NCBI GenBank assembly: GCA_011915565.1
Contig: GCA_011915565.1_3920.1
DNA from: a phage
Strand: one strand, 5' to 3'
DNA: 64,000 nucleotides
In this document: piece after piece, positions 1-32,270 of the stretch
Layout of the letters: every line of letters starts with the position of its first letter
Numbering within the stretch: the stretch's first letter is position 1
Program-made: the position numbers and the translations under genes
The notes under the pieces: model-generated
What the model saw: only the letters and a program-made list of their open reading frames with translations
What the model was told of the DNA's origin: nothing
The model's database searches: none

Positions 1-1159
1 AAAAGACCTTAACGAATGGTGGACAAAGTTCTATAAAGAGAAAGACACAGTTCTTGAAGGGTTTAAGCAGCGTATCTACAATGCGCCCCGTTACTGCCCT
101 GCTGGTATCAAGAACTTCGCAGATGGTTTTGAGGCAATGAAGAATCGTGGTCAGATTCCATTGATTCCTTTCCCAGAATCTTTCGGAGATTTGAACAGGC
201 TGACTTATGGCGGTTATGGTTTAGGTGAGATTACAACTCTGGCAGCACCATCTTCAGTGGGTAAATCAGCATACACTCGTGAAATGATTTATACTGCTTG
301 GAAAGATACCGATTACAATATTGGTGTAATTCCGGTCGAAGATACCTATGAAGAGTTGATGGAGATGCTCTGTGCAATCCACCTCAGCAAGCAGATTTCT
401 GAGATTCCTTATGACGAACGTGATTGGGATGAATTGAAGGAAGCACATGCAGAGCTATCTAAAGGTCGTCGTATCCACATCGTAGACCATCAAGGTGCAA
501 TTGACCAAGATAACCTGCTGGAATTTGTTGACTATCTTGTTAACAGTTTAGACTGTAAGATTATTATTCTTGACCCTATCACGTTAGCTCTGTCACGTTC
601 AGATACGGATGAAGAGGAAGTTTTGTCTGAGCTATTGCGTCGTTGCAAACGCTACCAGTATGCGCAGGTAAACGTATGTCACGTTCGTAAGAGTGCAGGT
701 GGTCAGAAAGCTAACTCTGAAGGTGGGGATATCTCTGAAGAGGATATCAAGGGTTCTGGTGCGTATTTCCAGATTTCCATGAATAATATTTTGTTAATGC
801 GTAACAAGGTTGACCCAGACCCTGTTAAGAAAAACTTGACAAAAATCAAGTTAACTAAATGTCGTCGTCACGGTAAGTCAACGGGTATTGCTGGTCATAC
901 TTGGTACAATCCAGATACAGGGCGTCTCATTAAAGCATCTGGTTGTGGAGTTGACATTGATGGTGCAGCAGAAAATATCCGTCAACAGTTTGGTATTGGT
1001 GAGGCTGAAGACCATTACGATGACTCTTTGCCACATTATGAGGATGAAGTGTTTGACCGTGAGACTGGTGGAGTCTATACTGAAGAACAACGTCAAAGCT
1101 CAACGATTCCACCTGTATTAAGTGAGGATGCAGATGACTGCCCGTTTGAAACTGAGTGA
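1..1159 (+). CDS. DnaB-family replicative helicase (possibly primase-helicase), 5' end outside window
   Basis: Frame is open from position 2 to the listed start at 137; Walker A-like LAAPSSVGKS in a RecA-like core resembling T7 gp4 / DnaB C-terminal domain. Confidence 0.75.
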   Translation, partial: KDLNEWWTKFYKEKDTVLEGFKQRIYNAPRYCPAGIKNFADGFEAMKNRGQIPLIPFPESFGDLNRLTYGGYGLGEITTLAAPSSVGKSAYTREMIYTAWKDTDYNIGVIPVEDTYEELMEMLCAIHLSKQISEIPYDERDWDELKEAHAELSKGRRIHIVDHQGAIDQDNLLEFVDYLVNSLDCKIIILDPITLALSRSDTDEEEVLSELLRRCKRYQYAQVNVCHVRKSAGGQKANSEGGDISEEDIKGSGAYFQISMNNILLMRNKVDPDPVKKNLTKIKLTKCRRHGKSTGIAGHTWYNPDTGRLIKASGCGVDIDGAAENIRQQFGIGEAEDHYDDSLPHYEDEVFDRETGGVYTEEQRQSSTIPPVLSEDADDCPFETE

Positions 1160-12012: not shown

Positions 12013-12023
12013 AACTTGACATG

Positions 12024-12060
12024 GTGGTGTGAGTCTTGATAGGCTTACATCACCTTTTTT
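12024..12060 (+). terminator. candidate intrinsic terminator
   Basis: Imperfect hairpin followed by a T6 run directly after nrdD. Confidence 0.4.
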
Positions 12061-12166
12061 ATTGGATGTTAGATATGGCAGAGAGTATTATTGGGTTGTT
12101 CATAGGTTCTGTCTTACTAGGGTTCTTTTTAGTACTCTCTTATTGTGAATTAAGAGGCAAGTTAAA

Positions 12167-14286: not shown

Positions 14287-14802
14287 ATGTATCTGTCAAA
14301 CCTGAAACGTTCGGTTGCAATGTCAGTTCTAAGACTCAGCTTTGATGAGCGTCAAGAGTTTATAGACTCCCACAAATATGACCCTTCAAATTCTAATCAC
14401 ATGGTTCTTTGGAATCGTGATAACTTCCGTGAAAGAGCACTTGTCCGTTATTACCCACACTACACAATAGATAACCTGTATGAATGGTGTGTTGTGAAGA
14501 ACACCATTGCAACACTGAACAATCTTTGCAGGTATACGGGTAAGCAAACATTTACATTAGGTCATCACAAACCTGTTACAAAAGGTGGTGAACATCACTG
14601 TGCAAACTGGTTTATCCAAACTAAAGCTGATAACCAGAAGCAAGGAGATAGCCTCCTAAGTATTCCTAAGATGACCTATGAAGAGCAAGAGAGGTATATC
14701 AAAAATAATATGCCAGATGTGCTTGACAACAACTATACAGATTTGGCAATATCTCTCCTGTTGAAGTTCGAGACAGTTTATAGGGCAACTTATAATGGCT
14801 AA
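14287..14802 (+). CDS. HNH endonuclease (possible homing endonuclease)
   Basis: 171 aa; LGHHKPVTKGGEHHCANWFIQTKADNQKQ fits the HNH motif; GGAGGT RBS. Confidence 0.65.
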   Translation: MYLSNLKRSVAMSVLRLSFDERQEFIDSHKYDPSNSNHMVLWNRDNFRERALVRYYPHYTIDNLYEWCVVKNTIATLNNLCRYTGKQTFTLGHHKPVTKGGEHHCANWFIQTKADNQKQGDSLLSIPKMTYEEQERYIKNNMPDVLDNNYTDLAISLLLKFETVYRATYNG

Positions 14803-16011: not shown

Positions 16012-17793
16012 ATGACTAAATCACTTTATGCAGTACCAGCAGGTTTAAACGCAGATGCTTACAAATCTGGTCATGTTTACCAGTACCCTAGTGCAACAGA
16101 GTACTTGATGTTCAACCTGACACCACGTAGTGACAAATGGTTTAACAGCCCCTTAGCAATTGATGGTGTAGTAGCTTTTGGTATTCAACGTTTCGTTAAA
16201 GATTACTTGATAGACCACTGGAACGCCACTTTCTTTGAACGTGATAAAAAAGAAGCCATTGATGAAATCTTAGAAGTTATGAATGGTGTTCTGGGTAAAG
16301 ATGCTATCGGTCGAGAGCATTGGGAAGCACTTCACGACTTAGGTTATCTACCAGTTGAAGTATACGCTGTAGAAGAAGGTACAGTTGTTCCTATGCGTGT
16401 ACCAATGATTGTCTTCCAGAACACTGTTTCAGGTTTCCATTGGGTAGCGGGATATCTGGAAGATGCTTTCTCTGCTGAGATTTGGAAGGCTTGTACCATT
16501 GCAACTATTGCATTGCATTATAAACGCATCTGTAAGAAGTGGGCTGACCTTACTTGCGACAATGACTTACATTTACCTTATCAGTGCCATGACTTTGCTA
16601 TGCGTGGTATGTCCGGCTTTACTGATGACGCATTTAACGCTGTAGGCCACTTAACCAGCTTTAAAGGGACTGATAGCTTCCCTGCTGTATATACAGCTAA
16701 ACGCATCTACGGACAGTCTTACCCAGTCTCTGATATTGGTGGTTCTGTACCAGCCACTGAACACTCTGTAATGTGTGCAAACATTGCTTGGGAAGGTGGT
16801 AATGAGTTGGTTGAAGAAGAAAGACGCTTTAAAGGTGAGTTGCAAACCTTCCGTCGCTTCTTAACAGAAACTTATCCAACTGGTATTGCAAGTGTTGTTT
16901 CAGACACTTATAACTTCTGGAGAACTGTGTCAGAAATCTTACCAGCACTCCGTAAAGAAATTATGGAACGTGATGGCAAACTGGTAATTCGTCCTGACTC
17001 TGGAGACCCTGTACACATTGTCACAGGTTATAAAGCAATCCACTTAGAGTGTGCTAAAAAGGCTTATTATGAGCACCTAAGCAATCTGGAAGCCAGTGAC
17101 ACAATGCTGAATGCTGTTCTGAACATGAAGCTTGAAAACATCAGCTATGGTATTGCTGGATGGCTACTGTCAGAAGGCTACGAAATGGTTGTTGACAGAG
17201 AAGACTTTGAAGTTGCTGATACAGTGATGTTGAAGAACGCTTATATGGTTGGTTCTGCAAACGTTGTAACACGCCCTGTAGCAGAGATTGATGGAGCTAT
17301 TAAGACCTTGTATAACATCTTTGGAGGAACTATTAACTCTAAAGGTTTTAAGGTACTGGATGAGCACATTGGCCTTATCTATGGCGACTCTATCACGTTG
17401 GAACGTGCAAACGAAATCCTGAAGCGTCTGTATGAAATGGGGTTTGCAAGCTCTAACGTGGTGTTTGGTGTAGGCTCTTACACTTACCAGTACATGACTC
17501 GTGACACCTTTGCATTTGCTGTCAAAGCAACTCTTGCAAGCATTGGTGGCAAAGAGATTATGCTTGCAAAAGACCCTAAAACAGATAGTGGTGTTAAGAA
17601 ATCTGCCTTTGGTGGTGTAGCACCTATGTGGGATGGTGAGAATTTGAAAGCTGTAGATGGCTATGGATTCCAGAGCTTTGCAGATGCACTTGAACATCCA
17701 GCTTGTGCTTTACGTTTAGTCTTTAGCGACTCTGAGCAGTACGGTTACACAACTCTTGGTGATATTCGAAATAATATTGACAATCAGCTTTAA
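16012..17793 (+). CDS. nicotinamide phosphoribosyltransferase-like enzyme (NAMPT/NadV family; candidate NAD+-forming transferase)
   Basis: 593 aa; N-terminal NADAYKSGHVYQYP resembles the conserved NAMPT start (DSYK..H..QYP). Confidence 0.75.
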   Translation: MTKSLYAVPAGLNADAYKSGHVYQYPSATEYLMFNLTPRSDKWFNSPLAIDGVVAFGIQRFVKDYLIDHWNATFFERDKKEAIDEILEVMNGVLGKDAIGREHWEALHDLGYLPVEVYAVEEGTVVPMRVPMIVFQNTVSGFHWVAGYLEDAFSAEIWKACTIATIALHYKRICKKWADLTCDNDLHLPYQCHDFAMRGMSGFTDDAFNAVGHLTSFKGTDSFPAVYTAKRIYGQSYPVSDIGGSVPATEHSVMCANIAWEGGNELVEEERRFKGELQTFRRFLTETYPTGIASVVSDTYNFWRTVSEILPALRKEIMERDGKLVIRPDSGDPVHIVTGYKAIHLECAKKAYYEHLSNLEASDTMLNAVLNMKLENISYGIAGWLLSEGYEMVVDREDFEVADTVMLKNAYMVGSANVVTRPVAEIDGAIKTLYNIFGGTINSKGFKVLDEHIGLIYGDSITLERANEILKRLYEMGFASSNVVFGVGSYTYQYMTRDTFAFAVKATLASIGGKEIMLAKDPKTDSGVKKSAFGGVAPMWDGENLKAVDGYGFQSFADALEHPACALRLVFSDSEQYGYTTLGDIRNNIDNQL

Positions 17794-17846: not shown

Positions 17847-18182
17847 ATGAAAATCAAAGAGATGAACATCAACATTGTCTTAGAAGAACGTTGGGAGAAT
17901 ATTAAGAAACCTGAAGATGGTAAAAAGTTCCTTAACAAAATTTTAGTAGCAGCTAAAGAAGAACTGACTGGCAAGATTGCAGCAGCAGTCACAATAAAAG
18001 TTTGTGTAAAAGGTCTTCCAGACAACCACCAATTTGCGCTTGACGAGTTTAAAAAAAGCTTCTACAATCCAAACAAACAGATGCTTGAAAGTAACTTTGC
18101 AGTATCTACAAGTATCGTCCATGACAGAAGCTTTATCCTTTACAAAAATATGAGAGGTGAGTCATGCAAGCATATTGGATAG
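17847..18182 (+). CDS. hypothetical protein
   Basis: 111 aa; GGAGAAG RBS. Confidence 0.55.
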   Translation: MKIKEMNINIVLEERWENIKKPEDGKKFLNKILVAAKEELTGKIAAAVTIKVCVKGLPDNHQFALDEFKKSFYNPNKQMLESNFAVSTSIVHDRSFILYKNMRGESCKHIG

Positions 18183-18368: not shown

Positions 18369-20735
18369 ATGCGCATGGTAAATGACCACGCAGAAGTGAT
18401 TAAGAGTTCAACTTCTTTAGAGACGTCTCAAGCACAGATTACAATGACACCTGAGATGTTCAGCCTTTTGAGTTCTGGTGTGTATACCTTTAAAGAAAGG
18501 GCAGTGATTCGTGAACTGTCATGTAACGCAGTAGATGCTCAGAAAGAAGCTGGAAAAGAGAACATTCCATTCCATGTGCATTTACCTACTCGTTTTGAGC
18601 CTTACTTCGAAGTTCGTGATTTTGGAACTGGATTGACTCATGATAAAGTTATGAGTTTGTACCTAAACTATGGAGCTTCTACGAAGAATGACTCTAATGA
18701 CTACATTGGTGCAATGGGTATCGGCTCAAAGTCACCATTTGCAATTGCTCAGTCATTCACAGTATCTAGCTATGTTGACGGTGTTGTTAATAAGTACTCT
18801 GTTTATCTTGAGAATGGTATCCCTCAAGTAACTAAGCTGACAACTAACCCAACAAAAGAACCTAATGGTTTAGCTGTACGTGTGGCAGTTGCTGACCACC
18901 GTATCTCAAAGTTCTTTGAAGAAGCTGGGAATGTGTACTCATACTTCACTGTAAAACCAGAAAGTAATATTGAGTACGACGATATATTAGCAGATATGAA
19001 CGTCATTGCCCGTGAAGAAGGTGTTTATGATGCCATGATTCATAAGCAAAGCTGGCGTTCTGGCGCTAACAGAACAGAGTTTAATGTGGTGATGGGTAAC
19101 ATTGCCTACCCTGTTAACATGGAAGCATTACTTGGAGATGATTTCTTCAAAGTATTGCCAGAATTTTTCCGTAGGAGCGTAGACCTTGTAAACATCTACA
19201 TGCCTATTGGTTCAGTTGCTATTGCAGCTTCTCGTGAAGCATTGCAGATGAATGACACGACAAAAAATGTTATCATTGAGGCTACTAAAAAGATAACTGA
19301 AGCCATTACAAAGGATGTTATCAAGAAAGTTAATAGCCAACCTACACTCATGGATGCTGCACAGGCTTATGCTGAGTTACGTTTGAACTCACGAGAGATG
19401 TTTAATGCTGTGTGTCCAAAGCTAGAATGGGGAGGCGTTAAGCTTGATTCTCTGGAAGAAGAATTACTAAACATTCGTCGTGGGATTATCTACGCAGAAG
19501 ACGGCTCAGTCATTTATGAACGTGACGGCAAAGGTAATATTAAGGTTGATAGGAACGGGAACAATATCCCTAAAGTAGACTATCTTTATGACCCAGTTGC
19601 TTATGTCAAGTTCAACTCTTTAGAGAGTAAGATTCGTGCAACAGCACTTTCCTACACTCAAGAGGCAAGCATGTTCAATATCTTTGGTGCAATGCGTAAA
19701 AGCCAAATTGAACAGTTTTTGTTCGTGATTAATGACCGTCGCAATAAAAACGGTACTGAGAAGACTGTAGGACGCAATCAAATTTTGCGTGGTGCATGTC
19801 GAGACTATGCCAGTGAATCAAATCTGTTTCACAGATACAATGGCATTGTGTTTGTATTCTCGACTGAAAAAGAGTTAGATGATTTAATCAATCTACACAA
19901 ACTTGATAAAAGCTTGTTAAAGATTGTGAAGATGTCTGATAAGGAACACCACTATCAGCGCAAAGAAGCTGTAAGGGGTGTTGTAAAACTATGGAAAGCT
20001 GTTCCAGCAGAATCTGTAGCTTCATACAAAGAGGTGTCAGAAGACTTAGACACAATTGAAGAACCTCAGCTTTACATTAAGGCAGTTGGTGACACAGTTG
20101 ATGGTAGATGTTTTTGCTCATCTCCAGAAGATGTAGCTAAGTCAGTTGCTAATGTTACAGGTAAGACAGTCTATGTTTTCCGAAAAGCAAATTGGAAAAA
20201 GATACCAGAAGACTGGATTGAAGTAGATGAGCAACTCTTGAACGATAGCTTAACTGATGTTCACTGGATTAACCATAACAGATATATGACACGTATCTAT
20301 ATGAATGGTGTCCTTGACCTTACAAGCAGTTGGATTATTGCCAGAAACTTTACGTTTAATAACAGGAAGATTTCTCGCGGGTATTGTTATTCAAGGGATA
20401 CTATTAAGACAATCTTCTTAGAAGGGAATGAAGATGCTGTTGAGGCAATGTTCGGTAAGATTCAGTATGTGGCTGCACCGTTTGCATACACTTACACTAT
20501 CAGTGTTCTTCAGGATTTGAAGACATGCCTTGATAATGACACAAAACTGTACAAAAAGATTAAGAAAGCAGGTGACCGCATGGTTATCAAGCTGACAAAC
20601 TATCTTTCAAAAAGAAAACAAGAAAACTTCTTGCTTTCACACTTAGATTGGAATAAAGTATCACCTATCGAAGTGAGTAAGTTTTTAGGCTTTGATGTGA
20701 AATGTGTTCCAGAAGGTACAACAATTTACGATTAA
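18369..20735 (+). CDS. rIIA: rIIA protein (GHKL-type ATPase fold)
   Basis: Blocks align by eye with T4 rIIA: VYTFKERAVIRELSCNAVDA, FEVRDFGTGL, DYIGAMGIGSKSPF, MPIGSVAIAASREALQ. Confidence 0.85.
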   Translation: MRMVNDHAEVIKSSTSLETSQAQITMTPEMFSLLSSGVYTFKERAVIRELSCNAVDAQKEAGKENIPFHVHLPTRFEPYFEVRDFGTGLTHDKVMSLYLNYGASTKNDSNDYIGAMGIGSKSPFAIAQSFTVSSYVDGVVNKYSVYLENGIPQVTKLTTNPTKEPNGLAVRVAVADHRISKFFEEAGNVYSYFTVKPESNIEYDDILADMNVIAREEGVYDAMIHKQSWRSGANRTEFNVVMGNIAYPVNMEALLGDDFFKVLPEFFRRSVDLVNIYMPIGSVAIAASREALQMNDTTKNVIIEATKKITEAITKDVIKKVNSQPTLMDAAQAYAELRLNSREMFNAVCPKLEWGGVKLDSLEEELLNIRRGIIYAEDGSVIYERDGKGNIKVDRNGNNIPKVDYLYDPVAYVKFNSLESKIRATALSYTQEASMFNIFGAMRKSQIEQFLFVINDRRNKNGTEKTVGRNQILRGACRDYASESNLFHRYNGIVFVFSTEKELDDLINLHKLDKSLLKIVKMSDKEHHYQRKEAVRGVVKLWKAVPAESVASYKEVSEDLDTIEEPQLYIKAVGDTVDGRCFCSSPEDVAKSVANVTGKTVYVFRKANWKKIPEDWIEVDEQLLNDSLTDVHWINHNRYMTRIYMNGVLDLTSSWIIARNFTFNNRKISRGYCYSRDTIKTIFLEGNEDAVEAMFGKIQYVAAPFAYTYTISVLQDLKTCLDNDTKLYKKIKKAGDRMVIKLTNYLSKRKQENFLLSHLDWNKVSPIEVSKFLGFDVKCVPEGTTIYD

Positions 20736-20740
20736 AGTGT

Positions 20741-20770
20741 TTGACAAGGGGCTTTGAAGCCCCTTAGAAT
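20741..20770 (+). promoter_or_regulatory. sigma70-like promoter with hairpin across the spacer (TTGACA-18-TAGAAT)
   Basis: Spacer contains the AGGGGCTT-TG-AAGCCCCT inverted repeat; 45 nt upstream of rIIB. Confidence 0.45.
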
Positions 20771-20814
20771 AGCCTCACAAATTGATTGATTAACTAACAA
20801 GAGAGAGTAATAAG

Positions 20815-21924
20815 ATGACTACTAAAACTAAAGCACAGATTGACGCAGAAATTTACAAACTGGTTAAAGAAGGTAAGCTGACCAAAACAGCTATTGCACA
20901 GAAATTTAACACTTCAACCCGTTCAGTTGGTCGTGCTGTAGAGCGTCATGAAGCAACCCTAAAAGGGAATAAAAAGGCAACTTCTACACCAGCTACGAAG
21001 ACTTTGAAACAAGTTGCTAAGACTTTTAAAAAGAAAGCTGGCAAACCAGTTGAAAAGGTCGTTAAAGAGACTGTACAGAAAGCTCCAGTAAATAAACTGC
21101 ACGAAGCTATGCAGAAAGATGACAAAATTGAGTACATGATTACTGGTGACTCTGTAATTATGACTTATGGTTCAGAATCTGAAATTGTTGAGTCTACTCA
21201 TCCAAACTATCAAGAGATTGTAGTTCATGTTGTGAAAGGTGAGTTCAAGAAAGCATTTGAACTGATGAACATCCGTAAGTCTATCGAAAACTTCACTCAG
21301 GGTGCTATTACAATCAAAGGTGACAAGCTATTCTACGGTGCTGTTGAGATGCGTTCTACTCTGGTTGACCGTATTCTCCACATGATGAAGACTGGTGATA
21401 AAGGTTTTGAACGACTTGTAATGTTCTTCGAAAAACTGATGGAAAACCCATCTAAAGATTCTGTAGAACAACTTTGGGGATTTGTATCTCACCTTGATGT
21501 TGAAATTGATGAAGAAGGCTACATCATTGGTTGGAAGAAAGTCTCTACTCGTGAAGGCAAGCTGGTTGACTCTCACACCTACAAAGTGCCTAATGATTTG
21601 GGTAACATTGTAGAAATGCCACGTTGGATGGTTGATAATAACCGTAACGTAACTTGCTCTCAAGGTCTTCATGTTGGTGCTTGGGATTATGTTCGTTGCT
21701 TCTCAGGTGATACAATCCTGAAGGTTCGCGTACATCCACGAGATGTTGTATCTGTTCCAACTGATTACAACGATATGAAGATGCGTTCCTCTCGTTATGA
21801 AGTTGCAGCAATCGTTGATAATCAACGTAAAGTGCTGGAAGCATGGGACGGTAAGACTGAAGCTTTGCATGTCATCGTTGGCACTGCTGGTGAACTCATC
21901 TCTCAACGTAAACGTGAAATCTAA
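20815..21924 (+). CDS. rIIB: rIIB protein
   Basis: C-terminal half aligns by eye with T4 rIIB (FEKLMENPSKDSVEQLW, CSQGLHVG, VRVHPRDVVSVPTDYNDMKMRSSRYEV). Confidence 0.85.
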   Translation: MTTKTKAQIDAEIYKLVKEGKLTKTAIAQKFNTSTRSVGRAVERHEATLKGNKKATSTPATKTLKQVAKTFKKKAGKPVEKVVKETVQKAPVNKLHEAMQKDDKIEYMITGDSVIMTYGSESEIVESTHPNYQEIVVHVVKGEFKKAFELMNIRKSIENFTQGAITIKGDKLFYGAVEMRSTLVDRILHMMKTGDKGFERLVMFFEKLMENPSKDSVEQLWGFVSHLDVEIDEEGYIIGWKKVSTREGKLVDSHTYKVPNDLGNIVEMPRWMVDNNRNVTCSQGLHVGAWDYVRCFSGDTILKVRVHPRDVVSVPTDYNDMKMRSSRYEVAAIVDNQRKVLEAWDGKTEALHVIVGTAGELISQRKREI

Positions 21925-21941
21925 TAAGTAATTTCTTAAAA

Positions 21942-21964
21942 GGCTGCTTCGGCGGCCTTTTTTA
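21942..21964 (+). terminator. intrinsic terminator
   Basis: GGCTGC-TTCG-GCGGCC hairpin plus T6. Confidence 0.7.
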
Positions 21965-21993
21965 TTTGTATTTTGTGCAGAGTGCTGTATAAT
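21965..21993 (+). promoter_or_regulatory. candidate promoter (TTTGTA-17-TATAAT)
   Basis: Consensus -10 TATAAT with weak -35, upstream of the 22025 ORF. Confidence 0.35.
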
Positions 21994-22024
21994 TGTTGTC
22001 ACGATAAACTAAACAGGAGAACCA

Positions 22025-22573
22025 ATGAAGAAATTGATTCTAGGTTTGTGCTTAATGTTTACAGCACACTTATCTTATGCAGTTGACTGCCCAGAGCTAT
22101 CAATTAGCCAAAAAGTGAACATGTTAAAAGCTTACCAGTATGGTGAGAATAACATGGGTAAAGGTTGGGGTATCACTCTAGCAGCTATAGCCTTACAAGA
22201 GTCAGAGTTAGGTCTGAAGGTAGAAAATAAAAAGACCCATGACTATGGTATCTTCCAGAATCACTTGAAGACTGTTGTAAAGCGTAACAAAATTAGTCCT
22301 AATGTTGCTAAAAAGAAACTCTTAAAAGATTTTGACTATGCTGCGAAGGAAACGCACAAAGAACTTGAGTTTTGGACAAAGGTGCATGGTCAGCCAAAGT
22401 CAAAGAAGACTTTACAAAAAGTTTTAGCATCATATAATGCTGGGTATTCGTACAGAATCCCTAAAGCTAAGAAGTATTCTCAAGATGTCTATAACAACAT
22501 GAAAGTTATTGCTCAATGTGAATTTGCAACAAACATTTCTAAGGTAAACCATGAAAAAATTAAAAAAGTCTGA
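22025..22573 (+). CDS. secreted protein with signal peptide (possible lytic-transglycosylase-like)
   Basis: MKKLILGLCLMFTAHLSYA signal peptide; ALQESELG...GIFQ loosely SLT-like; AGGAGA RBS. Confidence 0.55.
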   Translation: MKKLILGLCLMFTAHLSYAVDCPELSISQKVNMLKAYQYGENNMGKGWGITLAAIALQESELGLKVENKKTHDYGIFQNHLKTVVKRNKISPNVAKKKLLKDFDYAAKETHKELEFWTKVHGQPKSKKTLQKVLASYNAGYSYRIPKAKKYSQDVYNNMKVIAQCEFATNISKVNHEKIKKV

Positions 22574-23246
22574 TGAAGTCCTGTGCCACGCTTATGACTT
22601 ACATCCTCATGAGTTAGGTCTTGATTCCTGTGTATGGACTCCAGAACAGTGCAGAGATTTTGAAGACACTGCAAGAGAGGTTGTATGTTCACTTGAAGAG
22701 TTCCACACATCAGAACCCATTGTGAACGTTGTGGACAAAGAGACTGGACAAACTATAGGTGTAAGGCGTGATAGTTTAGTGATAGTCAATAAAGACCTTG
22801 TAGAAAAAGGTAACCTCATCTTAGCAGATATTGATGGTGTTCTTACAAATTTTAATCACGAAGATTGCTCAACGGAATTGACTGATGGGTCATTCTCACA
22901 GTACACTAATCTTCTTGATTCTGTAAGAGCAAAACCAACATATGTTTTCAACATTATTGATGCAATTGCAAATCATGCAGCAGTTGGACTCTTGACAGCA
23001 AGAGGTGAATCTCAGAGAATACCTACTGAGATGTTTTTAAGGCACAATATAGAGCATGATTACTTGCTTTTTATGCGTGGTTTTGGAACTAACTCTATAA
23101 GTGCAGAAAGTTTGAAAGTGAGGATGATTCAGTCTTGCATTCTTCCTTACTTTAATATAGTATGCTTTATAGAAGATACAGAGAAGAATGTTCAGAAGGT
23201 AAACAGAATCCTTCCACACATTAAAACCATGTTAGTTAAACATTGA
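22551..23246 (+). CDS. HAD-superfamily hydrolase-like protein
   Basis: LILADIDGVLT matches HAD motif I (DxDG); tentative. Confidence 0.5.
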   Translation: MKKLKKSDEVLCHAYDLHPHELGLDSCVWTPEQCRDFEDTAREVVCSLEEFHTSEPIVNVVDKETGQTIGVRRDSLVIVNKDLVEKGNLILADIDGVLTNFNHEDCSTELTDGSFSQYTNLLDSVRAKPTYVFNIIDAIANHAAVGLLTARGESQRIPTEMFLRHNIEHDYLLFMRGFGTNSISAESLKVRMIQSCILPYFNIVCFIEDTEKNVQKVNRILPHIKTMLVKH

Positions 23247-23257
23247 GAGAAGAACTT

Positions 23258-23722
23258 ATGAACAATATCATTACGGTAGCACTGGACGATACGGCAAACA
23301 AATCTGAAGTAGTTCGTAAAATGATTCAAGGTAACTTTGAAGGTAAAATTTTCCGTGCTGTTAATGTAAAAGCTGATGGCAGCATTCGTGAATATCGTGC
23401 ATTGTTGAACGTTAAGAAGCACGTAAAAGGTGTTGGTTCAACGACTGCACACAAAGAAAACCTGATGACTATCTATGATATGGGTAAGGCTTCAGAGTTA
23501 GGTGCTGAAGGTATCGTTAAAGAAGGTGCTCCGTATCGCTCTTTCAATCTGGAAACTACCCTTATGCTTTCCTTTACAAGTGGTTCCAAAACAATCACTT
23601 ATCTCTTTACTGATGCTGCAACGGTATCTGCTATTAAGGATAGCACTGTCAAAGCTGGCGTAGTTGCTGCTGCAAAAGCTTCTTCGATGGCTGCAAATAT
23701 CCTTGCTAAAGTCCTCGGTTAA
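23258..23722 (+). CDS. hypothetical protein
   Basis: Track start 23243 is TTG; ATG at 23258 chosen; followed by terminator. Confidence 0.5.
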   Translation: MNNIITVALDDTANKSEVVRKMIQGNFEGKIFRAVNVKADGSIREYRALLNVKKHVKGVGSTTAHKENLMTIYDMGKASELGAEGIVKEGAPYRSFNLETTLMLSFTSGSKTITYLFTDAATVSAIKDSTVKAGVVAAAKASSMAANILAKVLG

Positions 23723-23733
23723 GGTTAAGATAC

Positions 23734-23756
23734 AGGCTCCTTCGGGAGCCTTTTTC
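23734..23756 (+). terminator. intrinsic terminator
   Basis: GGCTCC-TTCG-GGAGCC plus TTTTT. Confidence 0.75.
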
Positions 23757-23774
23757 ATTTCAGGAGATTGTTAA

Positions 23775-24122
23775 ATGACATTTAAAGAGTTCTGTCAAGC
23801 TACTTTCATAGTTGTTTTCTTAGTTGGGGCAGGTGTCTGGGGAGGATACTCTTACAGAGACTACCAAGTTGCTGAAACTGAGCTAAACAATGAGAAGCTG
23901 ATAAGTGTTGCTAAAGATGCTTATCAGGAAGGATTAGCTACACTGAGCACCAATTACAAAAATGATTTGAAAGATGTGCTTGCTAAGAATAAGCACACAA
24001 AAGAGGTACTAACGTATGAAAAAACTAAGCCAGAGTTTTATAATGTTTGTGTTACTGATAATTATGTCAGGGTGTTCAACGAACAAAGTGAACAGTACAT
24101 TCAAAAACTCCCAAGTAAGTGA
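23775..24122 (+). CDS. membrane protein with N-terminal TM helix (candidate i-spanin-like)
   Basis: 115 aa; FIVVFLVGAGVWGGYSY helix then polar domain; AGGAGA RBS; 3' end overlaps a lipoprotein ORF. Confidence 0.5.
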   Translation: MTFKEFCQATFIVVFLVGAGVWGGYSYRDYQVAETELNNEKLISVAKDAYQEGLATLSTNYKNDLKDVLAKNKHTKEVLTYEKTKPEFYNVCVTDNYVRVFNEQSEQYIQKLPSK

Positions 24123-26359: not shown

Positions 26360-26390
26360 TAAACTCTGTAGAATATTCACAATAGATTAA

Positions 26391-26434
26391 GCCTTCCTTA
26401 TCTGGTAAATTTTTCAGGTAAGGAAGGCTTTTTT
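26391..26434 (+). terminator. intrinsic terminator
   Basis: 10-bp stem GCCTTCCTTA/TAAGGAAGGC followed by TTTTTT. Confidence 0.8.
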
Positions 26435-26627
26435 ATTTCAAGATTGTGCAGGTAGAGTTCTGTAGAGAAATCTGTAGAGAAAATTTTGAACTCCAAAGAG
26501 AAAATTCATTTTCAAACTGTGCAGGTAATCTCCAAAGAGCTTTTTCATTTTCAAAACGTGCAGACCCCGCTCAGGTCGGGCAAGAAAAATCATTTTAGAA
26601 TTGTGCAGGTAGGTGGATGCAGGTGGG
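26435..26627 (+). repeat. four direct repeats, consensus CATTTTCAAAnTGTGCAGGTA
   Basis: Copies near 26435, 26505, 26544, 26590; two also share CTCCAAAGAG upstream; lies between a terminator and the first early promoter. Confidence 0.6.
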
Positions 26628-26787: not shown

Positions 26788-26816
26788 TTGACTCTTTGAG
26801 TATGGTTATCTAATAT
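26788..26816 (+). promoter_or_regulatory. sigma70-like promoter (TTGACT-17-TAATAT)
   Basis: Directly upstream of the first class-A hairpin leader. Confidence 0.55.
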
Positions 26817-26820
26817 TTGC

Positions 26821-26879
26821 ATCAACGGGGAGGGAATGACCTTCCCCACTAAGTAAAGTCCTAAACTGGAGATTCTAAA
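26821..26879 (+). promoter_or_regulatory. class-A leader element, copy 1
   Basis: ATCAACGGGGAGGGAATGACCTTCCCCACTAAgTAAAGTCCTAAACTGGAGATTCtAAA then ATG; GGGGAGG/CCTTCCCC hairpin plus RBS. Confidence 0.6.
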
Positions 26880-27260
26880 ATGGCATACCGTGCACCTAAA
26901 TTCATCAACAAAGACAACTTCCGCAACGCACTGGAGAAGTCACTTGATGAAAAATTTAACGGCAAATTGATTGTTGTTCACGCATTCAATTTTAAGTATG
27001 ATATTAACGGGAATAAAATCAACCATTACACGGCAACCATGTTAGATGGTACGCTATCAAGTGAAAAAGCCGTACTGAATGCACTTGCAGGACGTGGTAA
27101 AAACCTGATAAGCTGCAATAAGAGACGTTATCAAGGTGGCGCATATGGTTATGATGATGCTGTTTACCATCTTGAAAATATGGGCTATTCAGTGGAGAAA
27201 GCTGGAGCGTCTCAAATAATTGGTAGTGATGGTTATGTGACAATCTTCAAAATTAAATAA
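26880..27260 (+). CDS. early-array small protein 1
   Basis: 126 aa ORF after class-A leader. Confidence 0.6.
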   Translation: MAYRAPKFINKDNFRNALEKSLDEKFNGKLIVVHAFNFKYDINGNKINHYTATMLDGTLSSEKAVLNALAGRGKNLISCNKRRYQGGAYGYDDAVYHLENMGYSVEKAGASQIIGSDGYVTIFKIK

Positions 27261-27346
27261 AAGTACTTTACAAGGGGCTTATAGTTCGATAAAGTAAGCC
27301 CCAGATAAAGAGCTTTATCACTCAATCCTAAATTGGAGATTCAAAA
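27258..27346 (+). promoter_or_regulatory. class-B leader element, copy 1
   Basis: AAGTACTTTACA, GGGGCTTA-loop-TAAGCCCC hairpin, AGATAAAGAGCTTTATCACTCAATCCTAAATTGGAGATTCAAAA then ATG; embedded TTTACA-17-TAAAGT promoter-like spacing. Confidence 0.6.
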
Positions 27347-27604
27347 ATGGCTATTATCAAAAACGTTGTAGTTCCTGCAAAAACTCGTGATGACGCTCGC
27401 ATCATGGCGAAAAAGTTAGGCGGGAAAGTGGTTGACAACGGAAAACAATCTGCTGTAAGATGGAGCGTGAAGGCTGATAAGCAACTAACCTTAAAACGCA
27501 GTTCAAACAATCTTTTTAAAGGTGTAAAATCACTCGGTAAAGTGAACGTGTTTACCAAAAAAGGCTATAAAATGCACTTATCATTAACTGGCAATTTAAT
27601 CTGA
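27347..27604 (+). CDS. early-array small basic protein 2
   Basis: 85 aa, Lys-rich. Confidence 0.55.
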   Translation: MAIIKNVVVPAKTRDDARIMAKKLGGKVVDNGKQSAVRWSVKADKQLTLKRSSNNLFKGVKSLGKVNVFTKKGYKMHLSLTGNLI

Positions 27605-27605
27605 T

Positions 27606-27694
27606 AAAGTACTTTACAGGGGGCTTAAAAGCTGATATCTTAAGCCCCAGATAAAGAGCTTTACCACTCAATCCTTAAACTAGGAGATTCAAAA
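27606..27694 (+). promoter_or_regulatory. class-B leader element, copy 2
   Basis: Same architecture as copy 1 (TTTACA, GGGGCTTAA hairpin, AGATAAAGAGCTTTACCACTCAATCC, GGAGATTCAAAA-ATG). Confidence 0.6.
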
Positions 27695-28207
27695 ATGAAA
27701 ACTGTAGAAGCTACCTTTGAAGTTGTAAAAGAAAAATTTTCCATCATTTACGAAGCTGTTAATTGCTTTGAAGCAAGCCATAACCTTGATAATTGGGAGT
27801 TTACAGATGACCATCAAGGCGGCGTGACTATTAAAAACCCCAACTGTCAGCGTAATGATTTTAAATATGCAATCCCTTTACATTACAGCCTTAAACAGCT
27901 TTCAAGTGACTATGCAAAACAAGGCCGGGAAAATCCATCAAAAGAGGCTTACATAAGCTTACAGAAAGAACTAGAAAGAGATTTAGAGGCTTCAGAATAC
28001 AACCTTGCCGCGAAAGTTGTCGATGCAAATGGTCAAACAATTTTAGATAGTTTTTATATTGGTTACGCTTTCGATTGGTGCTATAGTGACGGCGATGATT
28101 TAGAGGATAGACTAAAAGAAGAGGTGAGCAATTCAGACGCAGAATCTGAAGTATTAGAACGCTTGGAAGCATTAAAAGATTCAGTGATGAATATCTTTAA
28201 GAACTAA
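27695..28207 (+). CDS. early-array acidic protein 3
   Basis: 170 aa, Asp/Glu-rich C-terminal half. Confidence 0.6.
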   Translation: MKTVEATFEVVKEKFSIIYEAVNCFEASHNLDNWEFTDDHQGGVTIKNPNCQRNDFKYAIPLHYSLKQLSSDYAKQGRENPSKEAYISLQKELERDLEASEYNLAAKVVDANGQTILDSFYIGYAFDWCYSDGDDLEDRLKEEVSNSDAESEVLERLEALKDSVMNIFKN

Positions 28208-28295
28208 ATAGATTTCTTTACACGGGGCTATCAAGCTGATAAGATAGCCCCAGATAAAGAGATTTATCAACTATCCTAAACTGGAGATTCAAAAA
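28208..28295 (+). promoter_or_regulatory. class-B leader element, copy 3 (diverged)
   Basis: TTTACAC-GGGGCTATC hairpin-GATAGCCCC-AGATAAAGAGATTTATCAACTATCC...GGAGATTCAAAAA-ATG. Confidence 0.55.
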
Positions 28296-28592
28296 ATGAA
28301 ATTATCAAATAAAGTCCGTGAAAATCTAAGCAAGTTACTCAACAAAATTGATTTTATCGAGACATCAAGGAATAGTCATGATGTTATGGAATGGTTACAC
28401 GGAAAAATCAAAGGCCGTCGTGTAGTGATTTGCTTATGGAATAGTTGCAGGGAATATAAAAAACCTGTATTACAAGTCAATATCTATGATGATACTTTTA
28501 AAAGCCCTGTAAAGTCTAAAAGTGATTTATTAGAATCCTATGAGATAACTGTAAATGGCAAAGTATCAAGTAAAGAGGAAACACCATGTTAA
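28296..28592 (+). CDS. early-array small protein 4
   Basis: 98 aa. Confidence 0.55.
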   Translation: MKLSNKVRENLSKLLNKIDFIETSRNSHDVMEWLHGKIKGRRVVICLWNSCREYKKPVLQVNIYDDTFKSPVKSKSDLLESYEITVNGKVSSKEETPC

Positions 28593-28918
28593 TGACTGGT
28601 ATCACTGCAATCATTGCCATTTTCGCGCTATATAAGGCATATAAAGCCTATAATCTAGCAAATAAGGCAATCACACAGCAGGTTAGCAATAGCCTTGTAG
28701 AAAGCTTTCTAGGGCGTCTCAGTGATGAGCAAATAAAGCGGTTAGAAATGAGCTTCAGATTCAAAGCGAAAACCTATCAGATAAGTGACATCTTCAAGGA
28801 TGATTTCCAGTTAGTCGATGATTATAATTCTCTGATAAATGCTTTAAATATCAGTGACTTAAAAGACTACTACGCTGTAATTGTTCAAGAGTTGAGCAAA
28901 CGAAAACAAAACTGTTGA
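28586..28918 (+). CDS. early-array small membrane protein 5
   Basis: 110 aa; N-terminal TM helix; AAGAGGAAA RBS; no leader element of its own. Confidence 0.55.
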   Translation: MLMTGITAIIAIFALYKAYKAYNLANKAITQQVSNSLVESFLGRLSDEQIKRLEMSFRFKAKTYQISDIFKDDFQLVDDYNSLINALNISDLKDYYAVIVQELSKRKQNC

Positions 28919-29007
28919 CACTGATTTTTAGATAGATTAAATTACACATCAACGGGGAGGGAACAACCTTCCCACTAAATAAAGTCCTTAAACTAGGAGA
29001 TTCTAAA
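28914..29007 (+). promoter_or_regulatory. class-A element copy 2: promoter TTGACA-17-TAAATT plus hairpin leader
   Basis: TTGACACTGATTTTTAGATAGATTAAATTACACATCAACGGGGAGGGAACAACCTTCCCACTAAATAAAGTCCTTAAACTAGGAGATTCTAAA then ATG; near-identical to 29779-29870. Confidence 0.65.
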
Positions 29008-29280
29008 ATGTATACTACTAACAATGGCCTCACTTTGAACGTCACACTACGTCACTATGTAGATGGTGTCATGCACTTTGAAGATTTACAAGCTGAACAA
29101 CATATCTTAGATTGGCAAGTCGCAGGACTCCAAAAAACTGCTACGGGATACGGTAAAAAGATTCCAACTAGTTGGAAAGTTCACTATGAAGGACGTTTGC
29201 GCAGAATTTATCAAGATGTGCAAAGCAATAGCGCATCGAGTTACATTATAGTAAAAGGTGAAAAACTGCATTTAGTATAA
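29008..29280 (+). CDS. early-array small protein 6
   Basis: 90 aa. Confidence 0.55.
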   Translation: MYTTNNGLTLNVTLRHYVDGVMHFEDLQAEQHILDWQVAGLQKTATGYGKKIPTSWKVHYEGRLRRIYQDVQSNSASSYIIVKGEKLHLV

Positions 29281-29365
29281 AGTACTTTACATGGGGTTTA
29301 AAAGTTGGTATCTTAAGCCCCAGATAAAGAGCTTTACCCCTAAATCCTAAATTGGAGATTCAAAA
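29279..29365 (+). promoter_or_regulatory. class-B leader element, copy 4
   Basis: AGTACTTTACATGGGGTTTAAAAGTTGGTATCTTAAGCCCCAGATAAAGAGCTTTACCCCTAAATCC...GGAGATTCAAAA-ATG. Confidence 0.6.
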
Positions 29366-29770
29366 ATGGCTATTAATAATCGTGAGTTATCAATCTTAAA
29401 AGCACGTTTAACCGTTAATCGAATCAATGTTATCACGTCATCAGCACCAGACGAGACATTACACAACATTATCGGGAAGATTCAAGGTGTTATCTTAGAC
29501 GTTGAGAATGTAAAAAACTCATTAGCAGACGTTGCAGCAGGTGTTACACTAGACGGCGCACAATATGAAATGATTGACATGTTAGGCAAATCAAAGGTTA
29601 TGAATAAAGAGTTAGACTTAAAAATGTTTCGATTTGCCGTGAAAGTATGGCTATCTGTCGAGTATGATGCTAATTTTGCAATTGCTGATTTCTTTGCCAC
29701 TTGGTTGCAACGTAACTTAACAAATCATGATTTTCGTGATATCTGTGATGCAATTTACGCAGAACTTTAA
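29366..29770 (+). CDS. early-array small protein 7
   Basis: 134 aa. Confidence 0.6.
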   Translation: MAINNRELSILKARLTVNRINVITSSAPDETLHNIIGKIQGVILDVENVKNSLADVAAGVTLDGAQYEMIDMLGKSKVMNKELDLKMFRFAVKVWLSVEYDANFAIADFFATWLQRNLTNHDFRDICDAIYAEL

Positions 29771-29778
29771 AAATTTTA

Positions 29779-29870
29779 TTGACACTGATTTTTAGATAGA
29801 CTAAATTACACATCAACGGGGAGGGAACAACCTTCCCACTAAATAAAGTCCTTAAACTAGGAGATTCAAA
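29779..29870 (+). promoter_or_regulatory. class-A element copy 3: promoter TTGACA-17-TAAATT plus hairpin leader
   Basis: About 90-nt near-exact duplicate of 28914-29007. Confidence 0.65.
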
Positions 29871-30479: not shown

Positions 30480-30713
30480 ATGCTTACAACCATTTATCTC
30501 ATCCTTTCTATCTGTAACGGTCATTCATGTGACTTTAAAGGGCTTGAAGAGTTTACAGGAAGTAAAGAAAATGCTATTCAGGTTTGCCAGATAGCAAGAC
30601 AAGACTATCCCGCCAGTGACGACATTCAATGCTACTTTAAGACAGAAGATGAAGACGGCATCTATTTTGACAGCGTTGACGGTCAATATGAAATTATCAT
30701 TGAAAAAGACTAG
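30480..30713 (+). CDS. early-array small protein 9
   Basis: 77 aa; hydrophobic N-terminus; leader differs from classes A and B. Confidence 0.5.
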   Translation: MLTTIYLILSICNGHSCDFKGLEEFTGSKENAIQVCQIARQDYPASDDIQCYFKTEDEDGIYFDSVDGQYEIIIEKD

Positions 30714-30804
30714 ACAAGCCTGATAAAAGTCTGTAAATTACACATCAACGGGGAGGGAATGACCTTCCCCACTAAATAAAGTCCTTAAACTAGGAGATTC
30801 AAAA
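30711..30804 (+). promoter_or_regulatory. class-A element copy 4 (TAGACA-17-TAAATT plus hairpin leader)
   Basis: ...TAAATTACACATCAACGGGGAGGGAATGACCTTCCCCACTAAATAAAGTCCTTAAACTAGGAGATTCAAAA-ATG. Confidence 0.6.
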
Positions 30805-31146: not shown

Positions 31147-31275
31147 TCAATAACTTACAAAAAACTTTTAAAAAAGTGTTGACAATACCCCTTGACATTG
31201 GTAACTTTGTTCGAGGGGGTTTATCTAAAAGGGATTCACTTAAAAGATTCTTTATAGATAAACTTAAAAAATTGC

Positions 31276-31304: not shown

Positions 31305-31346
31305 TTATCTCAAGCAATAATGCTTTCCTAAACTGGAGATTCAAAA

Positions 31347-31877
31347 ATGAACAAGTTCAAAGCTATCAACTACATTCGCTCAAATAGTGTCATGTCTAAG
31401 CCTGTTAAGGATACCTACGAATTTCGTTGCAATGGTGAACACTTTGCTACCATCACCAAATCAAACAACGGGGCTTATTATATCCATCGTCGTAATGTTT
31501 CTACGGTTGTAGTTTCTAACTTTATGCAAGCTGTAGCGGAACTCCTCCCGCTCTTCTTAGAAAAGTATGCCGTACAGTGTGAAAGTGTTCGTGAATGCAC
31601 TAAAACAGTGTTAAACGGTTATCGTATGGCTTACGAGCGCTCTTTAAAGAATCTCAATAAATACTACAAAGCACCGGAAGGCACTTCATCCACAGCCTAC
31701 GGGGTAGGGGGCTTCAATGTCAGCCTTTACGAAGTGGAAGAAATCGAGCTTTATGACCATCGCCCAAATGGTTACGCTAAGACACTGGGAGAGGGGTTAA
31801 TGCTGAATATCAAGAACTTAGAAAAAACTTTAAGAGAAATTGAAAAAGATATTGACGAGACAATCAAAAATCTGTAA
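31347..31877 (+). CDS. early-array protein 11
   Basis: 176 aa; CTAAACTGGAGATTCAAAA-ATG translation-initiation motif shared with classes A and B. Confidence 0.6.
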   Translation: MNKFKAINYIRSNSVMSKPVKDTYEFRCNGEHFATITKSNNGAYYIHRRNVSTVVVSNFMQAVAELLPLFLEKYAVQCESVRECTKTVLNGYRMAYERSLKNLNKYYKAPEGTSSTAYGVGGFNVSLYEVEEIELYDHRPNGYAKTLGEGLMLNIKNLEKTLREIEKDIDETIKNL

Positions 31878-31939
31878 ATTGTCAATCAACGGGGGGTAAC
31901 CTGCCCCACTAAACAAAATCCTAAACTGGAGTTATCAAG
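31852..31939 (+). promoter_or_regulatory. class-A element copy 5 (diverged; TTGACG-17-TAAATT plus hairpin)
   Basis: GTCAATCAACGGGGGGTAACCTGCCCCACTAAACAAAATCCTAAACTGGAGTTATCAAG-ATG. Confidence 0.5.
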
Positions 31940-32203
31940 ATGGAAAACGTAGAATTAACCACACTATTGCAGATTGCAACTGACAAAGAAGACGTAGCGT
32001 TGTTTCACCGTATCGAAAGTGATTTGTTCAATGGTGAAATCATTAAAGAATCTTACGAAGTTGTCGGATTCAAAGATGGTAAAGCATTTGGCTTTTTTGA
32101 CCTCGACAAAAGCAAAGCGGTTACAATGTACGATGTTCTATCTTGTGAAATTCTGACAAAATACAACGAAAAAAGGCTTGCAACCTACGCCAATATGCAG
32201 TAA
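31940..32203 (+). CDS. early-array small protein 12
   Basis: 87 aa. Confidence 0.5.
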   Translation: MENVELTTLLQIATDKEDVALFHRIESDLFNGEIIKESYEVVGFKDGKAFGFFDLDKSKAVTMYDVLSCEILTKYNEKRLATYANMQ

Positions 32204-32270
32204 ATTACTAATCAACGGGGAGGGAATGACCTTCCCACTAAACAAAGTCCTAAACTGGAGAATCTAAATT
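32178..32270 (+). promoter_or_regulatory. class-A element copy 6 (TTGCAA-17-TAAATT plus hairpin leader)
   Basis: TAAATTACTAATCAACGGGGAGGGAATGACCTTCCCACTAAACAAAGTCCTAAACTGGAGAATCTAAATT-ATG. Confidence 0.55.

Follow-up and report, generated by a model that had tools for sequence, protein, structure and literature searches.

Putative promoter-early stem-loop (PeSL)-type cassette boundaries in the early region of a Felix O1-like phage

Promoter-early stem-loops (PeSLs) were defined in phages RB49 and phi1 as units comprising an AT-rich stop-codon region, a sigma-70 promoter, a stem-loop of poly-G and poly-C that includes G-T pairs, a Shine-Dalgarno (SD) sequence and an ATG, with the stem-loop most commonly placed in the stretch that separates the −35 box from the −10 box or overlapping the −10; the authors report lacZ-fusion evidence of promoter and terminator activity, as well as recombination between PeSLs (Arbiol et al., 2010; PMC2839356). 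PeSLs were later extended to other T4-like phages and are known from RB49/phi1, PST/T4 and nt-1/KVP40 (Arbiol et al., 2010; Comeau et al., 2014, PMC4122927); formation of mini-circles also counts among the traits of the family. Here, we analyse a 64,000-nt stretch of phage DNA (contig GCA_011915565.1_3920.1 of GenBank assembly GCA_011915565.1; hereafter, the window), in which a preliminary description made from the sequence alone had drawn attention to promoter-like hexamers combined with a G+C-rich hairpin upstream of rIIB and at four sites among the early genes. We think it likely that these are PeSL-type cassette boundaries, in which shuffled gene cassettes are bounded by a composite of early promoter and sense-strand RNA stem-loop.

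The window belongs to Felixounavirus, subfamily Ounavirinae: positions 20000–24000 match Escherichia phage vB_EcoM-Ro111lw at 100% identity and wV8 and many other Felixounavirus genomes at 97–99%. The rIIA open reading frame (ORF 18369..20735; rIIA is annotated in relatives) is followed by rIIB, with its ATG at 20815, and then by a series of small plus-strand ORFs extending to ~32.5 kb; every gene in this early cassette region lies on the plus strand, as do all features located below unless stated otherwise. Relatives of the rIIB site were gathered by rIIB protein (30 IMG/VR loci: 29 of Felixounavirus type and the more distant L032), and a scan of genome contigs with an rIIB profile added just two remote bacterial loci, which were uninformative.

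Three module designs were distinguished by the position of the stem: in the spacer (rIIB), over the −10 (class B) or after the −10 (class A), so that, as in PeSLs, a G/C-rich stem-loop lies between, over or just beyond the boxes. Other likenesses are sigma-70-like −35 and −10 boxes ~17 nt apart at rIIB and class B, an upstream stop codon in an AT-rich 5′ region, a 3′ end that carries an SD and a start codon, repetition and clustering among small ORFs of unknown function, and indels, replacements and duplications between close relatives that are bounded by the elements. When RB49 was scanned with our own detector, it yielded gttgacAGGGGATCGGTGATCCCCTatact, almost the rIIB design, together with several copies of the class-B design, with the −10 in the loop. 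Unlike PeSLs, the modules belong to Ounavirinae rather than to the T4-like Straboviridae, which is a matter of lineage and not of mechanism, and are without sequence homology to the RB49 modules: blastn matches to a class-B module were confined to Ounavirinae, at 1,415 places in 288 phage records, or ~5 copies per genome across those records. Promoter and terminator activity were shown for the RB49/phi1 elements by lacZ; the window modules are likened to them by sequence only, and at that level all the testable PeSL features are present, with lineage the sole exception.

Such combinations are far more frequent than expected by chance. Strict promoter-like sites (TT[GT]AC[AT]-16..18-TAnnnT) number 34 on the plus strand and 9 on the minus strand, against ~18.6 expected on both strands together. 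Seven of them, all on the plus strand, carry an embedded hairpin of at least 7 bp with at least 4 G-C pairs, compared with a mean of 0.06 and a maximum of 2 in 200 dinucleotide shuffles. Similarly, the motif TTKACANGGGGYT, allowing at most one mismatch, has six matches where 1.07 are expected, a number reached in none of 100 shuffles. The earlier suggestion that these are reused promoter-plus-hairpin units with a role is supported.

At rIIB, the −35 hexamer TTGACA (20741..20746) and the −10 hexamer TAGAAT (20765..20770), both recognised from sequence and conservation, are separated by 18 nt filled by an inverted repeat, exactly at the coordinates first given. The −35 follows the rIIA stop codon (TAA, 20733..20735) after 5 nt, and sigma-70 geometry predicts a transcription start at the A at 20777, 7 nt after the −10. 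Since the 2-nt TG loop originally proposed cannot form, the palindrome is better read as AAGGGGCT-TTGA-AGCCCCTT (20746..20765), in which an 8-bp stem closes a 4-nt loop and one base is held in common with each hexamer; its RNA centroid structure is at −13.3 kcal/mol. The site scores 11/12 hexamer matches. Among relatives, TTGACA is kept in 29/29 Felixounavirus-type loci (one TTGACT) and also in L032, the −10 is TAGAAT or TAAAAT in all Felixounavirus-type relatives, and the spacer shortens from 18 to 17 nt in L021 and L024–L029 (rIIB identity 76–84%). The core stem GGGGCT/AGCCCC is constant, around a loop of TTGA, TCAA, GAAA or GCAA. As a separate observation, the loop (20754–20757 in the window; the same site in L006–L031) occurs as TTGA or its exact reverse complement TCAA, each on several flank haplotypes, which looks like recurrent inversion of the hairpin loop, the palindrome also pairing within one strand of DNA.

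Class-B modules consist of TTTACA, one base, the arm GGGGCTTA, a 10–13-nt loop and the arm TAAGCCCC, with the −10 sitting in the loop and extending into the 3′ arm, preceded by TGn in three of four. They do not, therefore, share the rIIB design of hairpin followed by −10 that had been ascribed to them; the four sites themselves exist, two at slightly shifted positions (27267–27295 and 28217–28245) and two as first placed (27613–27641 and 29286–29314). All start at or beside the upstream stop codon (TAA or TGA) and finish in ...GGAGATTCAAAAATG. Module 1 (27259..27346) comprises an outer 5′ strand at 27259–27270, holding the stop TAA (27258–27260), the −35 TTTACA at 27267–27272, an inner hairpin at 27274–27302, the −10 TAAAGT at 27290–27295, a predicted start at the A at 27303, an outer 3′ strand at 27306–27317, an SD and an ATG at 27347 (RNA fold −18.8 kcal/mol, z −4.65). 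The corresponding elements of module 2 (27605..27694) are the outer strands 27605–27616 and 27652–27663, the −35 at 27613–27618, the inner hairpin at 27620–27648, TGn with the −10 TATCTT at 27636–27641, a predicted start at 27649 and an ATG at 27695 (−20.2 kcal/mol, z −3.78). In module 3 (28209..28295), the outer strands lie at 28209–28220 and 28255–28266, the −35 at 28217–28222, the inner hairpin at 28224–28251, TGn with the −10 TAAGAT at 28240–28245, the predicted start at 28252 and the ATG at 28296 (−24.7 kcal/mol, z −7.39). Module 4 (29278..29365) has outer strands at 29278–29289 and 29325–29336, the −35 at 29286–29291, an inner hairpin at 29293–29321 with U.G as its fifth pair, TGn with the −10 TATCTT at 29309–29314, a predicted start at 29322 and an ATG at 29366; its RNA folds at −18.6 kcal/mol on the plus strand versus −16.5 kcal/mol on the minus strand.

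An nhmmer profile gathered 138 class-B copies with 55 distinct cores. TTTACA is invariant in all of them, and TTTACA-17/18-TAnnnT is present in 54 of the 55 cores. The opening T and A of the −10 lie 17 nt downstream of TTTACA in 49 cores and 18 nt in six, and a single core lacks the final T, the three inner positions being near-random. As the T and A are unpaired loop bases that stay invariant beside drifting neighbours, they fit a sigma-70 −10 and not a hairpin loop. Sigma-70 spacing would put the start at the A that opens the invariant block AGATAAAGAG, directly 3′ of the 3′ arm. Two other promoter placements were rejected. A class-B −10 (TAAAGT) at the stop codon, with a start upstream of the hairpin like that of class A, would leave its −35 in non-conserved coding sequence, and was discarded because TTTACA-17-TAnnnT lies within the conserved module. 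A MotA-box-like reading of GAGCTTTAC followed by TAAATT would place the start downstream of the SD, and T4-type promoter-specificity factors are reportedly missing from Felix O1 (Whichard et al., 2010; PMC3185647).

The stems are conserved as structure on the sense strand. Over the first nine pairs of 48 distinct class-B inner hairpins, there are 34 G.T/T.G cells and one A.C/C.A cell; because G.T is a wobble pair only if the plus strand folds, this 34:1 excess indicates that it is the plus strand that does so. In alignment A1, 98.9% of cells are paired, falling to 59–61% when the partner is slid by one column, and none of 500 shuffles matches the observed percentage paired or covariation score. 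Alignment A3 (the full module, 66 distinct sequences including Erwinia phage copies, 20-pair structure) gives 97.9% paired versus at most 57% when slid, and seven pairs changed on both sides versus 2.6 ± 1.0 in shuffles (0/500), including G-C to U-A at pair 3 and a C-G, U.G, U-A series at pair 5. Most class-A hairpins carry a G.U pair, and the commonest of them, which has one, folds 3–4 kcal/mol better than its own reverse complement.

Folding also brought out an outer helix in class B, formed between the stop-codon/−35 region TAAAGTACTTTA and the segment of downstream RNA from +4 to +15, TAAAGAGCTTTA. Among 96 distinct modules, the pair (−3,+9) is U.G in 89, U-A in 4 and C-G in 3; (−4,+10) is G-C in 74 and U-A in 12, with 10 mismatched cells; and (−6,+12) is A-U in 85 and G.U in 10. 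The module 3 outer strands TAGATTTCTTTA and TAAAGAGATTTA are complementary at 12/12 positions, including two G.U pairs, and only 7/12 identical as direct repeats. [quoted passage not shown] On this predicted fold, the whole class-B promoter lies inside an interrupted RNA hairpin of ~20 bp that only read-through transcripts could form. Taken together, the wobble asymmetry, covariation and outer-helix pairing indicate that the stems are under selection as a single-stranded nucleic acid of the sense strand, for which read-through RNA is the simplest reading.

Three further points concern these structures. In modules 2 and 4 (27605–27616 and 29278–29289), the outer strand on the 5′ side, TAAAGTACTTTA, reads by itself as a perfect palindrome of 12 nt and takes in the stop codon of the upstream gene together with bases 1–4 of the −35; module 1 (27259–27270) has AAAAGTACTTTA. 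The sequence GATAAAG-AG-CTTTATC, considered as a 5′ hairpin or operator, is mostly imperfect (CTTTACC is usual) and is better seen as the 3′ strand of the outer helix. In the GenBank record of XTG1 (L001), several early-region hairpins, class-B copies included, are labelled as minus-strand Rho-independent terminators (14532–14552, 17144–17164, 18009–18029 and 19563–19583), a reading that we reject given the class-B wobble asymmetry and the lack of annotated minus-strand genes there.

More distant phages retain the arrangement with other arms. L032 (rIIB 60% identical) has TTGACA-17-TCTAAT before rIIB, where the −10 is overlain by another hairpin, AAGTGGTC...GGCCACTT, as well as class-B-like units such as TTGTCG-GGGTTGTTTGAGTAGGT-GATAAT-AAACCC-ATAGAG. 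Pectobacterium phage Arno162 has TTGACA-GAGACTCTTT...TGC-TAAGGT...AAAGAGTCT-TTTTT and a second unit, TTGACA-GAGTA...TGG-TACTCT, in which the −10 itself is the 3′ arm. In Erwinia phage phiEa104, class-B arms GGTGTTTA/TAAGCACC show the change from G-C to U-A at pair 3, and the modules retain TTTACA, the spacing, TAnnnT and GATAAAGAG; in a further copy, the loop holds the −35 and the spacer a U-tract. The same arrangement with unrelated arms in L032, Arno162 and phiEa104 points to selection on the arrangement and argues against a sequence-specific binding site.

Mapping class-A and class-B modules in 28 loci and clustering the segments between them showed that the cassettes are shuffled at the modules. 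Cassettes 7, 5 and 12 are polymorphic for presence or absence, cassette 4 is replaced by 17, and cassette 2 is tandemly duplicated (2,2) in L026; all these events are bounded by modules, and the class of module before a given cassette varies among the loci. The early cassettes share a near-identical translation-initiation region, CCTAAAYTGGAGATTC(A/T)AAAATG, whether class A or class B precedes (copies at 26858–26882, 27325–27349, 28273–28298, 29344–29368 and 31325–31349), which gives the two classes a common homology.

In the reading that we favour, each unit is laid out as an upstream stop codon, an AT-rich stretch, a sigma-70 early promoter, an interleaved G+C-rich stem-loop, a shared ribosome-binding-site region and an ATG. 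The promoter would work as duplex DNA, with the downstream mRNA starting just 3′ of the stem, so that promoter-initiated RNA would be without the inner hairpin. The hairpin, in turn, would work as sense-strand RNA, present only in read-through from the upstream gene. As it starts 5–15 nt past the stop codon of the upstream gene and stops at −1 relative to the following transcript, its position suits an effect on the 3′ end of the message upstream; most likely, it would attenuate or terminate transcription and cap that 3′ end, insulating each small early gene. Both signals could fit into ~30–60 nt because the spacer and the middle of the −10 carry few sequence constraints, and the repeated modules would provide the homology through which recombination could add, delete, swap and duplicate cassettes.

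Several observations weigh against this proposal or limit it. The hairpins lack a canonical U-tract (the tail after the stem is UUAGAAUA at rIIB and AGAUAAAG in class B) and were unlisted by a terminator scan; tails such as TTAGAATA and AGATAAAG do not reach five U's in the eight positions after the stem, the exception being a copy at 12016, and the nearby real terminators (21938–21961, 23734–23751 and 26389–26430) have 5–6 U's. Without a U-tract, efficient intrinsic termination is doubtful, and the role at the RNA level may be 3′-end protection or processing. The modules resemble intrinsic terminators in having a G+C-rich, sense-strand-selected stem-loop a few nucleotides after a stop codon, and differ from them, beyond the missing U-tract, in containing a promoter and in the class-B loops, which at 10–13 nt lie outside the 3–8-nt intrinsic-terminator range, with the 4-nt rIIB loop inside it. 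In addition, the rIIB stem has almost no informative variation among relatives, and its sole variant, AACCCC (L009 and L031), gives a C.A mismatch on the plus strand; tolerance of G.T would equally suit a folded plus strand of DNA; module copies recombine, and independent events are therefore fewer than the copy counts imply; and a search of the literature found no mapped transcript 5′ or 3′ ends for Felix O1-like phages. On balance, the sequence features lead us to favour attenuation plus 3′-end protection as the role of the hairpin.

The main competing explanation, unlikely but credible, is that the modules are RNA-processing or insulator sites, at which the read-through class-B hairpin is cut by RNase III or another structure-guided RNase, leaving a protective 3′ hairpin on the upstream message and a downstream mRNA with a 5′ region like that of the promoter-initiated one. 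The class-B structure, with its 9-bp upper stem, 3 × 3 internal loop and 10–12-bp lower stem, speaks for this: the outer helix lengthens it to ~20 bp with internal loops (−18 to −25 kcal/mol), no U-tract follows, and the early RNase III sites of phage T7 have a similar succession of upper stem, internal loop and lower stem. Those sites are intergenic hairpins between consecutive early genes, and cleavage leaves a 3′ hairpin on the upstream mRNA; unlike class-B modules, they are not known to contain promoters. The rIIB (8 bp) and class-A (7–8 bp) hairpins are far too short for RNase III, yet are similarly placed, and no Rfam family matches, a search at a permissive E-value giving only sub-threshold chance hits (e.g. 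mir-22 on a class-B hairpin). The lacZ assay used for PeSLs cannot tell termination from RNA cleavage or decay (PMC2839356).

A more speculative form of this idea, and an unlikely one, is that class B is a promoter inside an RNA switch-off hairpin, where a dsRNA-specific RNase, or cutting or recombination of the folded strand, acts at the internal promoter start. If true, the processed and primary transcripts of each cassette would share a 5′ end, the cassette would be a self-contained mobile expression unit, and the module would be comparable to a T7 RNase III site or an integron attC site, with a promoter added.

The preliminary description had also raised a DNA structure modulating promoter strength. 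In its wider form, this is a DNA-level element: a palindrome acting as a hairpin or cruciform, or as a folded plus strand, that tunes the promoter or serves cassette recombination. Folded DNA would tolerate G.T too, TTGA and its reverse complement on several haplotypes of the rIIB loop are a signature of hairpin-mediated inversion, the cassettes are shuffled at the modules, and Arbiol et al. placed one PeSL crossover within a loop (PMC2839356). We nevertheless consider it improbable, as the 34:1 strand asymmetry is unexpected for a cruciform, in which both strands fold, and the class-A reverse complement is 3–4 kcal/mol weaker; moreover, loops of 10–13 nt and internal loops disfavour extrusion, and ordinary homologous recombination between ~90-nt modules suffices for shuffling.

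The binding site for a phage factor suggested at the outset, here taken as an operator whose inverted repeat is bound by a dimeric protein, from phage or host, to turn the early promoters off or activate them, is very improbable. The palindrome does overlap core promoter elements, the half-sites GGGGCT/AGCCCC are common to rIIB and class B, and the block AGATAAAGAG is invariant. The spacing between half-sites, however, varies from 4 to 13 nt and is altered by indels, including those in the rIIB spacer; the complementary arms of class A, L032, Arno162 and phiEa104 are unrelated; and the substitutions are compensatory or wobble, preserving pairing and not a recognition sequence.

Least probable of all is the alternative offered at the outset of terminator-like RNA hairpins with chance hexamers, at which no transcription would start: the sense-strand RNA hairpin is supported, class-B hexamers are individually weak (9/12 matches) and the last T of the −10 doubles as a stem base, but TTTACA and the unpaired loop T/A are invariant at 17–18 nt beside near-random loop positions, the 11/12 rIIB site is conserved through a spacer indel, strict sites are in excess on the plus strand (34, against 9 on the minus strand and ~18.6 expected on both), and the same composite was shown to be an active promoter in RB49/phi1 (PMC2839356).

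The class-A modules carry a different hairpin from class B, GGGGAGGG...CCTTCCCC, ~10 nt after the −10 of TTGACA-17-TAAATT. The first (26788..26879) has TTGACT-17-TAATAT at 26788–26816, a hairpin at 26827–26847, i.e. at ~+4, an SD and an ATG at 26880. It is followed by 28915..29007 (TTGACA-17-TAAATT at 28915–28943; hairpin with a plus-strand G.U at 28954–28973, folding at −13.4 kcal/mol versus −9.7 kcal/mol on the minus strand; ATG 29008), 29779..29870 (TTGACA-17-TAAATT at 29779–29807; hairpin 29818–29837; ATG 29871), 30711..30804 (TAGACA-17-TAAATT at 30711–30739; hairpin 30750–30770; ATG 30805) and 32178..32270 (TTGCAA-17-TAAATT at 32178–32206; hairpin 32217–32236; ATG 32271). A class-A-like module read from the sequence at 31852..31939 (TTGACG-17-TAAATT at 31852–31880; hairpin 31891–31907; ATG 31940) has the upstream stop codon inside its −10. 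In all, at least 12 modules lie within 26.8–32.3 kb, clustered among small variable ORFs.

Two further composites differ from these. At 12016..12066, TTGACA (12016–12021) adjoins a 14-bp hairpin (12023–12054) with several G.U pairs and a −10-like TAGGCT (12040–12045) in its 3′ arm, followed by TTTTTTATT; it is the only copy with a canonical U-tract, and represents a canonical terminator overlapped by a promoter-like site, lying outside the region of early cassettes. The weakest case, 31179..31217, has TTGACA-17-TAACTT with CCC...GGG arms (31189–31217) around the spacer and −10 and a second TTGACA inside the loop, in a 200-nt gap before the gene at 31347; it may be a degenerate or tandem composite.

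Direct repeats of other kinds were seen nearby. The long gap after the strong terminator at 26389–26430 holds three ~34-nt direct repeats (26491–26608; ...CATTTTCAAA..GTGCAG), overlapped by ORF 26446..26598, which may not be a gene. The equivalent gap has similar arrays, with four copies of ...CATTTTCAATTTGTGCATAG in phiEa104 and four copies of a 34-mer in Arno162 (L036 3552–4010 and L035 9033–9728), and these arrays may be iteron- or operator-like. Just beyond the early cassette region, 32943–33534 contains the short direct-repeat families D8 (TGTTAAATCTCTGTTAAGACC...) and D9 (TATGTTATAGGGGCTATAAAGTTAC...).

The paper on the Felix O1 genome records the sequences of classes B and A merely as direct repeats of 57 bp and 39 bp; they are omitted from the predicted promoters and terminators, and no structure or function is assigned to them (Whichard et al., 2010; PMC3185647). 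We find that the 57-bp repeat CTTTACATGGGGCTTAAAAGTCTGTAAAGTAAGCCCCAGATAAAGAGCTTTACCACT is the class-B module and the 39-bp repeat the class-A promoter. The wV8 GenBank record lists the same sequences as features DR_1–DR_9, and the available part of the wV8 paper makes no mention of repeats or promoters. Our literature search found neither PeSLs in Felix O1-like phages nor any paper naming both PeSLs and Felix, and no comparative wobble or covariation evidence for sense-RNA stems was found in the accessible text of the PeSL papers (PMC2839356, PMC4122927). PeSL-type cassettes, a kind known from T4-like phages, are thus not previously described in Ounavirinae, and the covarying outer helix that appears to enclose the whole class-B promoter is possibly a new detail.

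If the modules are what we propose, the Felix O1 and wV8 direct repeats gain a function, the minus-strand terminator annotations are corrected, and precise predicted promoters become available for Felix O1-like phages, some of which have drawn study as candidates for therapy or biocontrol. Wobble that is strand-specific, together with covariation, provides direct comparative evidence for stem-loops working as sense RNA. The PeSL concept would be extended from T4-like phages to an unrelated myovirus subfamily, the Ounavirinae, suggesting that virulent phages reliant on host RNA polymerase have converged on, or widely share, the solution of nesting an early promoter in a gene-boundary stem-loop.

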